A model generated the notes under the pieces. The model worked only from the letters and a program-made list of their open reading frames with translations. It had not been told where the DNA came from and did not search any database. A stretch of 63,918 nt of DNA, counting the filler, from Limisphaerales bacterium (lineage in GTDB: Bacteria; Verrucomicrobiota; Verrucomicrobiia; Limisphaerales; SIBE01): the NCBI GenBank assembly GCA_044225505.1. It is 3 parts of 3 records of this genome, joined end to end, with 100 filler letters (N's around TTAATTAATTAA, not from the genome) between each part and the next. Parts side by side here need not be neighbours in the genome. Positions count along the whole stretch, not along the records: positions 1 to 24,186 come from JBGAIN010000126.1; 2 more parts are not named here. One strand, given 5' to 3'. The position numbers were made by a program, and so were the translations under genes. Every line of letters starts with the position of its first letter. Within the stretch, counting starts at the first letter, position 1. Below, one piece after another: positions 22,087-24,480 of this stretch.

Positions 22087-22195
22087 GCTTAACCTGAAGC
22101 AGTGTATGCGCCGTGCCCAAAAACTCAAGGCTTCGGATTATCAGAAAGCGTTGAGGGCATGGCGCATACACTGCGGTTGAACTGAGCCGCTGAGC
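22087..22195 (-). repeat. Integron attC site (partly degenerate)
   Basis: GTTCAAC ... long stem GCAGTGTATGCGCCATGCCC / GGGCACGGCGCATACACTGC ... GTTAAGC. Confidence 0.75.
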
Positions 22196-22260
22196 GTGCT
22201 GAGTGTAGGGGTCAGTCCCGCAGATACGCATGTCCGGTGTTCGGCAAAAGCTTCTCACGC

Positions 22261-22371
22261 TTATTTGAGCCTCTCTCGGACACATCCGGCGGCGTAGCCA
22301 GCCGCGCCCATCATCAAGGATGCGGCGTGGTAAATCGCTCCCGGATATTGCAGCCTCAGCTTTCTCGCCAT
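22261..22371 (-). pseudogene. Y1 (IS200/RAYT-like) tyrosine transposase N-terminal remnant
   Basis: Translates MARKLRLQYPGAIYH..., the typical N-terminus of this family, then diverges and stops. Confidence 0.8.
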
Positions 22372-22520
22372 GCCAAGAACCTGCCCCTGCCTTACCTCAA
22401 GCGTCAAGACCTATATTTTATTATGCGGGACTGATAAACATTAAGGGCAGTTGAGACAAAAGGTCTCCTCACAGTTAAAACGTTGTTGTCCGTAACGAGT
22501 GAACAACAACCAACAGAACT

Positions 22521-23582
22521 ATGAGAAGACCGAAGGAAAAGCTAATCGCAGGAATGGATTTACACAGCAACAATGTGGTGATCGGCGTGATCGACCAGGA
22601 CGGCAAACGCGTCGCGCAGCGGAAGGTGGAGTGCGACTTGAAGCAAGTGACTCAGTTTCTTAAGCCGCTGAAGTCGCGGCTCCAATCGATGGCTGTCGAA
22701 TCGACGTTCAACTGGTATTGGCTGGTCGACGGTCTGCGTGCGGCCGATTATCCGGTGGACCTGGCCAACCCCGCCAAGATTGAGCAGTATAGCGGGATGA
22801 AACACGCCGACGATCAACACGATGCGTTCTTCCTGGCGGAGTTACAGCGGCTGAACATTCTGCCCAAGGCGCACGTCTACGATCCAGCGCTGCGGCCGGT
22901 GCGCGATTTGTTGCGCCGTCGCATGAATCTAGTGCATCAGCGCACGTCCTTGCTGTTGAGCTTCAAAAGCCTCTATACGCGCACAACGGGGCAAAAGCTG
23001 GATCTGCGCGAAGTCAAGAAACTGGAGCCCAAAGAGGCGCCCAAGCTCTACGAGCATCCAGCCAATCAACTGATTGCGCAAGTGCAAGCCGAGCACATTC
23101 AAGGCCTGGAGAAGAGCATCGGACGGATCGAGAAAGGCGTGCTGGCCAGCGCGCGCGAAATCCCGTTTTACGAGAAGCTGGTGACCATTCCGGGCATTGG
23201 CCGAATCCTAGGAATGACGATCACGATGGAAGTCGGAGATATCGAGCGCTTCCCGACCGACGGAGATTTTGCCAGCTACTGCCGGATGGTCGATGCCCGG
23301 CGGTTGAGCAACGGCAAATGCAAGGGAGACAATAACCAGAAGTGCGGCAACAAATACCTGGCCTGGGCCTTCGTGGAAGCGGCGAATTACGCGCGGCGTT
23401 TCGACGAACATTGCCGTCGTTGGTACGACCGCAAAGCGGCCAAGACCAGCCACGTGATTGCGACCAAAGCGCTGGGTTGCAAGCTGGCCAAAGCGGCCTG
23501 GCACGTGATGGCAGGGAACTGCGACTATGACCAGAGCCGGATGTTTCCGGAACTGGCCAACAAAACGATGAAGACCAAGTGA
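22521..23582 (+). CDS. IS110-family DEDD transposase/recombinase
   Basis: GMDLHS, VESTFNWYW, KHADDQHDA (DEDD RuvC-like); TIPGIG, RRLSNGK (catalytic Ser candidate), GNKYLAWAFVEAA. Confidence 0.96.
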   Translation: MRRPKEKLIAGMDLHSNNVVIGVIDQDGKRVAQRKVECDLKQVTQFLKPLKSRLQSMAVESTFNWYWLVDGLRAADYPVDLANPAKIEQYSGMKHADDQHDAFFLAELQRLNILPKAHVYDPALRPVRDLLRRRMNLVHQRTSLLLSFKSLYTRTTGQKLDLREVKKLEPKEAPKLYEHPANQLIAQVQAEHIQGLEKSIGRIEKGVLASAREIPFYEKLVTIPGIGRILGMTITMEVGDIERFPTDGDFASYCRMVDARRLSNGKCKGDNNQKCGNKYLAWAFVEAANYARRFDEHCRRWYDRKAAKTSHVIATKALGCKLAKAAWHVMAGNCDYDQSRMFPELANKTMKTK

Positions 23583-23587
23583 ATTTT

Positions 23588-24050
23588 GAGAGCAGCCGTT
23601 AGCCAGCAAAGGGGTTGGACCAAGAGCTCTTGGGACTGATTGGAAGCGGCTGCTCTCTGGCTGATTTAGATTCGTGCAGCTTAAAGACGCTTTGCAAGCG
23701 ATTCGACCGTGTCGCGAGTCACAAACGGGTTGGACCTCGGCAGCCGCAACGCTGCTTGGGAACCATAGCTCTATGGCACTGAATGAACGCGGCCCGGTAC
23801 TGAAAGTTCTCTGGTCCCACCGCTGGTGGGATGGGCGCAACGTGGGTGAACGCGCGCGCTTGCCAAAACGAGCGCGCGTGGTAAAGGAACGGTTGACCAA
23901 CAAAACCGAGCCGGAGGGAGATGGGCAGGAGACGTCCCGTCCGCTCCTTTCGGTTCGAAAGTTTGTGCAACCTCCTGGTCATCACCCCGACCCGCGCTAG
24001 ATCCAGATGGCTGACTGAACGGATCGCCTTCTCGAGCTCCGGCTCGAGAA
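23588..24050 (+). ncRNA. Predicted bridge/seek RNA with two target-binding-like loops and one donor-binding-like loop (ends approximate)
   Basis: Stem-enclosed loops carrying GGGGT + GGGACTGA (target), CGGGT + GGCACTGA (variant target), GTTTGT + ATGGCTGA (donor junction). Confidence 0.75.
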
Positions 24051-24186
24051 CATCCGATTCATGCAACGAGAACGCAGGTTCGTGTCTGCTGGCAGAGTTC
24101 GGGTCGGAAAAGCTGCGGCAAAACCGTTTTGAAAAAATCGGATAGATAACGTTTTTTCTTGTTGACCAGGGCCCTAATGGCTGACC

Positions 24187-24286
24187 NNNNNNNNNNNNNN
24201 NNNNNNNNNNNNNNNNNNNNNNNNNNNNNNTTAATTAATTAANNNNNNNNNNNNNNNNNNNNNNNNNNNNNNNNNNNNNNNNNNNN
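24187..24286. other. Artificial contig-join spacer
   Basis: N runs around TTAATTAATTAA (stop codons in all six frames). Confidence 0.98.
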
Positions 24287-24480
24287 GGGGCGCCCCCCCC
24301 CAACGCCCGATCCCAAGCGTGCGGGTTGGCGCCGTCGTTCCGTCGGTGTCCTCCTCTGGACAGATCTCGGGCTGGATGCGCGCGATCTCGCTCCAATTGC
24401 GGAGATCTGTCGATAACTCCAGCCGGATAGGTCCGATCAATCACTTCTGCCAGGTATCGCTGAAAGCCGTCAGAGCGTGA

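Follow-up and report, generated by a model that had tools for sequence, protein, structure and literature searches.

A probable one-target, one-donor bridge RNA with a third guide-like loop in an IS1111-type element of a Limisphaerales bacterium

The window analysed here is a stretch of 63,918 nucleotides (nt), filler included, from the genome assembly GCA_044225505.1 of a Limisphaerales bacterium, and all positions count along it. Judged by its sequence, the interval 22435-24184 is a 1750-bp insertion sequence of the IS1111 type (ISGsu4-like) within the IS110 family, whose 3′ non-coding region appears to specify a bridge-type (seek) RNA containing two modules of similar layout. An initial annotation of the locus had proposed such an RNA, and had taken both modules for target-binding loops programmed for different sites: the assignment to the IS110/IS1111 bridge-type (seek) RNAs holds, and comparison with relatives places the second module inside the domain that would bind the donor, the element's own ends. 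The parts of the element are as follows:

22427..22434, + strand: target, left half: GGGACTGA, where a genomic repeat of ~95 nt ends; same sequence as 23632-23639, the 3′ strand of module 1
22435..24184, + strand: IS1111-type IS110-family element; left junction from repeat copies, right end from five other copies in the genome
22439..22448, + strand: left subterminal inverted repeat, CATTAAGGGC, reverse complement of 24171-24179 save for one extra A; kept in relatives
22521..23582, + strand: transposase/recombinase gene, 353 amino acids; Pfam DEDD_Tnp_IS110 and Transposase_20
23588..23657, + strand: module 1, putative target-binding loop equivalent to the short seekRNA, 70 nt; co-variation with flanks and a compensated stem
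23698..23705, + strand: 5′ strand of a long-range helix, GCGATTCG, closing the donor-binding domain by pairing with 24020-24027
23706..23798, + strand: module 2, paralogue of module 1 inside the donor-binding domain; stems supported and widely found among relatives
23799..23814, + strand: block B, junction strand ACTGAAAGTTCTCTGG, candidate left-end guide; complementary to the start of the left end
23815..23998, + strand: inner arm of the donor domain, made of a hairpin (23815-23831) and a helix of 23834-23838 with 23994-23998 around a variable insert
24003..24020, + strand: block C, junction strand CCAG-ATGGCTGA-CTGAAC, with ATGGCTGA (24007-24014) the candidate right-end guide
24020..24027, + strand: 3′ strand of the long-range helix, CGGATCGC; pairing counts on an alignment of relatives (A2, below) and RNAalifold
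24171..24184, + strand: right subterminal inverted repeat, GCCCTAATG (24171-24179), and right end ...GCTGA; kept in relatives

The protein matches PF01548 (DEDD, the RuvC-like N-terminal domain; E 5e-15) and PF02371 (Transposase_20, C-terminal; E 6e-17), and its nearest named relative is the ISGsu4 family at ~43% identity. Non-coding DNA amounts to 602 nt on the 3′ side of the gene (23583-24184) as against 86 nt on the 5′ side; this long 3′ region and the subterminal inverted repeats, which fall in the 7-17 bp range of the IS1111 group, are marks of that group and the reason for assigning the element to it. Its limits follow from two boundaries: the 55 bases preceding 22435 belong to a multi-copy repeat of the 9.04-Mb genome, in which homology between copies ends at 22434, and five other right-end copies (on contigs C245, C49, C47, C278 and C193) have ...CTAATGGCTGA in common before diverging. 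Beyond that point four of the five continue CCCCT and one CCGCT. Contig C219, at whose end the element sits, runs only to 24186, and the element's own right flank is therefore missing after CC; positions 24187-24286 are a run of N with a TTAATTAATTAA linker between contigs, and the sequence right of it, where C220 begins at 24287, is not the element's true neighbour. Joining the left flank ...GGGACTGA to the CCCCT... right flanks of the other copies restores an uninterrupted repeat, GGG(A/C)CTGACCCCTTCGA, in which the target reads GGG(A/C)CTGA|CCCCTTCGA; DNA contigs of the public run X1 pass from 22434 straight into CCCCTTCGA, representing empty sites and confirming the target. The flanks of several copies combined, the element's own right flank being cut off by the contig end, show site- and orientation-specific insertion without target duplication. 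The target repeat, ~95 nt long, has at least 23 copies in the genome (22348-22434; C81, C82, C140, C252 and others), with the site reading GGGCCTGA in nine, GGGACTGA in six, GGCACTGA in two and something else in six. The commonest of these variants, GGGCCTGA, mismatches module 1 at position -5, and an inverted copy of the insertion site lies at 22208-22219.

Relatives for comparison came from three sources: 1) two loci found with a single-protein query; 2) seven usable loci from related genomes; and 3) 80 loci from metagenome contigs found with a protein-alignment query, these being the best 80 of the 505 stretches that encoded a relative among 595 that matched the search pattern. Their proteins are 44-88% identical. 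Structure was counted on A2, an alignment of 33 non-coding regions, using a structure written from the window's sequence, and the counts of strands against flanks leave aside L024, L039, L067, L048 and L107, whose strands could not be extracted in register, together with loci lacking a flank.

Module 1 consists of an outer stem (GAGAGCAGCCG / CGGCTGCTCTC), an inner pair CCA / TGG and a hairpin (CCAAGAGCTCTTGG), which together hold two strands: AAAGGGGT-TGG on the 5′ side (AAAGGGGT at 23608-23615) and GGGACTGA on the 3′ side (23632-23639). The 3′ strand is the left flank of the element (22427-22434), and AAAGGGGT complements ACCCCTT, the sequence to the right of the other copies, so that module 1 is, as the initial annotation had it, programmed for the site that the element occupies. 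The same correspondence moves with the flanks in relatives. Agreement between the 3′ strand and the left flank of the same locus stands at 87-100% over positions -7 to -1 (31 loci); left flanks taken from other loci give 50-100%, or 50-77% at the variable positions -7 to -4. For the 5′ strand and the right flank, over positions +1 to +6, the corresponding figures are 78-100% (27 loci) and 58-100%. Re-programmed examples include L055 (GTTTACTCG with CGGGTAAAA), L060 (GCAAGTG with CACTTGC), L033 (GCCGAG with CTCGGC) and L046. By these sequence correspondences module 1 is a programmable target-binding loop, the 5′ strand of which would pair with the top strand right of the cut and the 3′ strand with the bottom strand left of it.

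The two modules (23588-23798) would form only the first half of a bridge (seek) RNA of ~440 nt drawn from the element's 3′ non-coding region. In the structure proposed, the long-range helix closes a three-way junction, two single strands of which would read the ends of the element, block C the right end and block B the left; module 2 would form one arm of this junction, and the hairpin with the variable insert the other. The closing helix is 98% paired, three of the five tested pairs have changed on both sides (with compensatory changes in L095, L063, L078 and L094), and RNAalifold independently predicts ten pairs of it. All seven pairs of the inner-arm hairpin have changed on both sides, and the helix next to it is 92% paired with three of five pairs changed, around an insert that ranges from 16 to 145 nt among relatives.

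The final 8 bases of the element (24177-24184) recur exactly in block C, as its ATGGCTGA. At all 47 loci compared, block C and the right end agree in the one variable base of this stretch, fourth from the end (C in 9, G in 36 and A in 2), and the four changes that it has undergone in block C on the protein tree are each accompanied by the same change in the right end. The base that follows is always T in block C and is C in ten right ends, a difference that a G-U pair would tolerate. At L117, a plasmid copy (AP028203.1, 2185-2700), right end and block C both end in TGT, not TGA, and the left flank ends in TTGA, a pattern suggesting that the core shared by the partners is the dinucleotide TG and that the next base is part of the right-hand side. 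Block B follows the left end in a similar manner: the reverse complement of its consensus (CCAG-AAAAC) agrees with a left end of TAAAC in 22 of the 22 loci that have one (TAAAC with GTTTT), TAATC goes with GATTTT in 7 of 12, TAAGC with GCTTTT in L084 and TAGAGC with GCTTT in L095, and the remaining left-end variants of the main clade are changes between A and G, both of which U can pair with. Strands complementary to the donor that co-vary with the element's ends, the mark of a bridge RNA, are therefore present in both junction strands, albeit through few independent events.

This arrangement bears out the earlier view that module 2 is not the donor loop, as the right-end guide in block C lies ~210 nt further downstream. 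Tried directly as a donor loop, module 2 offered strands that matched the joined ends in no register examined by eye, where blocks B and C do match the ends. Block C was also considered as an alternative DNA end, in the style of ISPpu9, and is read here as a guide because no left-end-like sequence follows it and the truncated right-end fragments found in the genome do not begin there. Between the two blocks a further helix of CTGG (23811-23814) with CCAG (24003-24006) is possible; both sides are invariant, and three of 33 rows have a T-T mismatch. Immediately 3′ of the closing helix, 24028-24052 form a perfect hairpin, TTCTCGAGC-TCCG-GCTCGAGAA, and relatives have a hairpin of other sequence in the same place.

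Module 2 repeats the layout of module 1 in a different sequence, with an outer stem (ACCGTGTCGCG / CGCGGCCCGGT), an inner pair TCA / TGA, a hairpin (CCATAGCTCTATGG), a 5′ strand CAAACGGGT-TGG (23722-23733), a 3′ strand GGCACTGA (23775-23782) and, in addition, an extra hairpin at 23735-23760. Both modules were thus found where the initial annotation had placed them, and their paralogy was confirmed: they align locally with a score of 32, as against 14.1 +/- 2.5 for shuffled sequences (maximum 27, with 0 of 2000 reaching 32), and a covariance model of module 2, built from 33 relatives, also matches module 1, at a lower score than module 2, over the full length of the model (23590-23655; 29.3 bits, E 1e-4). 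The contrast of CCA/TGG with TCA/TGA had been offered as co-variation of paired positions. The difference is real (31 of 33 rows of A2 have C-G in module 1, and 31 of 33 have U-A in module 2), but it is fixed between the paralogues and does not amount to co-variation within one helix.

Support for the fold is comparative. In the 33 relatives pairing reaches 91% in the outer stem of module 1, where both partners have changed at 8 of 11 pairs, and 84% in that of module 2, where they have done so at 9 of 14; in the extra hairpin of module 2 all nine pairs have changed on both sides. Over the whole structure pairing is 84.2% in A2, as against 74.3% in shuffles (none of 500 reaching the observed value), 45 of 67 pairs have changed on both sides, sliding the partners by 1-3 columns reduces pairing to 33-41%, and RNAalifold recovers the main helices independently. 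The inner hairpins beside the 3′ strands are paired in only 52% of cases, for which misalignment is the probable cause. Module 2 is conserved as well as compensated: among the 71 loci with at least 260 nt after the gene, the model finds it at the expected place in 64, missing L051, L076, L086, L102 (E 0.17), L104, L106 and L110, in the last of which the module is visible by eye. Rfam covariance models gave no matches at E up to 1 in 22100-24187.

We put at about 60% the probability that this is a one-target, one-donor IS1111 bridge RNA of the multiloop kind, with a third guide-like loop in its donor domain, module 2, that reads the core bases only. Module 2 would, on this account, have no site-specific guides of its own and would retain the bases that read the core (...G-TTGG in the 5′ strand, ...A-Y-TGA in the 3′ strand) together with the motifs it has in common with module 1; its most likely role would be to seat the second recombinase dimer on the donor side, where it would touch the core and a few adjacent bases, and donor-specific reading would fall to the strands at its base. 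The pattern of conservation is consistent with such a division of labour. The distal positions of the module 2 strands are as variable as unconstrained sequence, with an entropy of 1.5-1.7 bits at -7 and -6 and of 1.0-1.5 bits at +4 to +8, and what is kept (TGA, A at -5, and G-TTGG) comprises the bases that in module 1 overlie the shared core. At position -4 of the 3′ strand, C or T, the two modules carry the same base in 90% of 41 loci, as compared with 53% across loci. When a conserved partner of the module 2 strands was sought across loci (8 of 8 pairs, wobble allowed), the only ones found were their own template, the similar ACTGA of block B and, in six loci, the left flank. Pairing of the 5′ strand (AAAACG) with block B (CGTTTT) was tried and set aside, the variants in the window, L052 and L062 being uncompensated.

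Several observations weigh against this interpretation. The window's own block B has a mismatch to the window's own left end, reading GTTCT for GTTTT. Once relatedness is allowed for, the agreement of block C with the right end comes down to three independent pairs on supported branches, all concordant (sign test p 0.25), and the link at -4 to four, of which ~2.3 are concordant and none opposite (p at least 0.25; not significant). The RNA folded as a single sequence (23583-23830), a check suggested in the initial annotation, is no more stable than shuffles (z -0.48), which is why the structure has to be argued from comparison and not from energetics. On the branch of L032, L033 and L073 the 3′ strand of module 2 has lost TGA (CCGA, CGCA and CGGA), and core reading is to that extent not universal. 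The proposed seat for a recombinase dimer is drawn by analogy with IS621, where the available text describes each of two similar loops as housing one dimer (PMC11208158), and from the motifs common to both modules. Finally, the short seekRNA alone sufficed for transposition of ISEc11 in the account given in the available text of PMC11187229, so that by analogy some IS1111 elements may be able to do without the donor domain altogether.

Next in standing, and in our judgement unlikely, is an account in which module 2 is a short-reach third reader of DNA, recognising target-type bases by the core over ~5 positions on the left and 1-3 on the right. The donor domain, with blocks B and C, could then hold both junctions of element and flank, whether as substrates of excision or products of insertion, much like an enlarged version of the handshake guides of IS621. 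In relatives the strands of module 2 do not follow their own flanks beyond these distances; within them, the 3′ strand agrees with its own left flank more often than with those of other loci at -4 (90% vs 67%) and -5 (71% vs 55%; 31 loci), and at +2 the 5′ strands of the two modules coincide in 90% of cases vs 73%. Module 2 also adjoins blocks B and C, the -4 positions of the two modules are never opposite in independent pairs, and precedents are found in the available texts on IS621, in which donor-loop bases pair with core-adjacent bases of the target after strand exchange (PMC11208158), and on excision substrates, which bind across both loops (PMC13626964). However, the co-variation loses significance with the correction for relatedness described above, one branch lacks TGA in the 3′ strand, and the short seekRNA of ISEc11, as far as the text available goes, supported excision as well as insertion by itself (PMC11187229).

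Less credible again is the notion of module 2 as a decayed duplicate, retained only as a scaffold, a protein-binding site or a processing signal, with strands that pair with no DNA at all. The near-neutral distal positions would be expected of it, as would the want of any conserved complementary site in the elements and flanks beyond the template itself and the left flank of six loci, and the conserved bases, being those common with module 1, could be contacts for protein. Set against this, the bases retained are exactly those that read the core (TGA and TTGG), and -4 tends to follow the target.

The initial annotation had made module 2 an independently programmed second target loop, allowing one recombinase to recognise both GGGACTGACCCC and GGCACTGACCCG, the latter divided as GGCACTGA|CCCG, perhaps as variants of one repeat family. 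In favour of this, module 2, which is not the donor loop, is built like a complete target loop, its strands are about as variable among relatives as those of module 1, GGCACTGA stands on the left in two of the 23 copies of the repeat, and in L058, L059 and L071 module 1 is itself programmed for ...AACTGA|CCCGTT, near the consensus of module 2, which implies that such sites are usable by the family. The insertions themselves tell otherwise. On the left, module 1 is the better fit to the flank in 26 of 31 loci, two are ties, and in three (L042, L038 and L094) module 2 is ahead by one base; on the right, module 1 is the better fit in 21 of 27, with five ties and one (L074) for module 2. Except at -4 and -5, module 2 agrees with its own flank no better than with those of other loci, and at +4 it is regularly mismatched, being paired in only 26% of loci. 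In the same 9.04-Mb genome GGGACTGACCCC occurs 16 times and the predicted 12-mer GGCACTGACCCG once, roughly the number expected by chance and outside the target repeat; none of the five further right-end junctions in the genome begins CCCG, and the two repeat copies with GGCACTGA on the left continue with CCCTTTCGA, not CCCG. Across the flanks of relatives, the five right junctions and the count of genomic 12-mers, no insertion of the module 2 type was found. A close relative from run X16 has 9-10 differences within module 1 but an identical module 2, which is not the behaviour expected of a loop that is being re-programmed. A second target specificity is accordingly very improbable: the RNA would join one target to one donor, not two targets, and natural two-target multiplexing should not be carried forward as a claim about this element. 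The broader proposition that module 2 is a functional third DNA-reading loop, as a short-reach junction holder (a dedicated site for excision or for holding products) or as a relaxed second reader of the target, giving three guide loops in place of two, is doubtful, a little less so than the short-reach account taken singly.

The element adds a member to a known group, and much of what is proposed for its RNA is known in kind. According to the available text of Durrant et al. (2024; PMC11208160), many IS1111 bridge RNAs hold their donor-binding bases in a multi-loop, a remark that the reading of the donor proposed here fits, and a target loop combined with multiloop reading of the donor is in that sense known. 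From the text available on the IS1111 seekRNAs of ISEc11, ISPa11 and ISKpn4 (Siddiquee et al. 2024; PMC11187229), the points in common are an RNA encoded just after the transposase stop, a stem-loop of 70-100 nt in which the match to the top strand lies 5′ of the match to the bottom strand (module 1 is 70 nt long and begins 5 nt after the stop), a repeat as target, subterminal inverted repeats, and a longer form of the RNA of unexplained role. In contrast, the transposases of those elements are <30% identical to the one here (not reached by tblastn at E 1e-20), the conserved RNA of ~440 nt exceeds the published long forms of 145-172 nt, and the region beyond the short RNA can here be assigned to parts, a nested look-alike loop and strands that read the ends. 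The bridge RNA of IS621, as the available text describes it (PMC11208160, PMC11208158), likewise reads target and donor, both strands of each, around a shared core in one RNA with two loops alike in layout; it differs in that the RNA of the window lies at the 3′ and not the 5′ end of the element, has the order of strands reversed, carries its donor guides in the junction strands of a three-way junction and has a third guide-like internal loop. The parts of L117, of the ISGsu4 family, come in the order found here (module 1, module 2, block B, block C and right end), and its transposase is ~43% identical; it differs in its target and in the TGT already mentioned. ISPpu9 also repeats an end sequence internally, downstream of its transposase gene, in its A and B boxes, but those boxes act as alternative DNA ends that mobilise a separate module, on the account of the available text (Pares-Guillen et al. 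2025; PMC12288879), where block C is taken for a guide. A third loop, or a second of the target type, in IS110 bridge RNAs is not mentioned in the searchable text of the literature, a search that left figures and several supplements outside its scope, and a third guide-like arm may already have been drawn without comment, for example in figures 6d or Extended Data (ED) 10c of PMC11208160.

Expression of the RNA can be approached through one further feature near the right end:

24162..24167, + strand: TTGACC, likely the -35 box of a promoter that would be whole only once left and right ends meet; motif only

From TTGACC it is 17 nt to the end of the element, and since the left end starts TAAACA and is preceded by TG, joining of the ends would place TG-n-TAAACA after the spacer. 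Junction promoters of this kind are published for IS1111 elements, in the text available of PMC11187229, and are the basis for the function suggested. No complete sigma-70 promoter was found in the integrated element, and no circle junctions were seen among the contigs of four public runs. RNA-library contigs from three studies (X15, X16 and X19) cover 23325-24120, thereby including both modules and blocks B and C, and two of them reach no further than 24117 and 24120, past which a DNA run continues, a weak hint that these limits mark the extent of the RNA. The same contigs leave most of the transposase gene (22740-23300) uncovered, an absence that proves nothing.

Right ends also occur apart from complete elements. 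Four right-end-only fragments of 134-223 nt (C47:3940-4076, C49:2609-2830, C278:1-134 and C193:3300-3433) all end at the right-end|CCCCT junction and are 5′-truncated solo right ends; two of them lie inside their contigs, with unrelated DNA upstream. A degenerate copy, L002 (C245:17932-18766), is 91% identical to the element, with the left end and most of the transposase gene missing; it directly follows an intact copy of the target repeat and retains modules 1 and 2 (model matches of 24 and 48 bits). Repeated right ends seem common in this clade: in L042 (1230-3010) the entire RNA region and the right end are duplicated in tandem, with two matches to the module 2 model, L059 (1859-1897) has two right ends 19 nt apart, and L114 (3939-4160) has two ~200 nt apart. 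In L030, L031, L032 and L033 the transposase frame extends into module 1, so that the stop codon lies inside the RNA stem-loop. Two open frames overlap the structured region of the window's element, at 23208-23903 on the - strand (231 amino acids) and 23674-24000 on the + strand (108 amino acids), and are probably no genes, because conserved helices lie there.

Bridge recombinases are under development as programmable tools for rearranging genomes, and to our knowledge nearly all mechanistic work on them has been done with IS621. The clade described here supplies a comparative map of an IS1111-type RNA, with its target guides, donor guides and closing helices, and draws attention to a conserved third guide-like loop. 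The role of the IS1111 RNA beyond the short seekRNA, left unexplained in the available text of PMC11187229, can now be divided into testable parts. If the third loop does read DNA, the design of such RNAs and the present view of excision would both change; if it is only a scaffold, it would mark a part of the RNA that can be trimmed.

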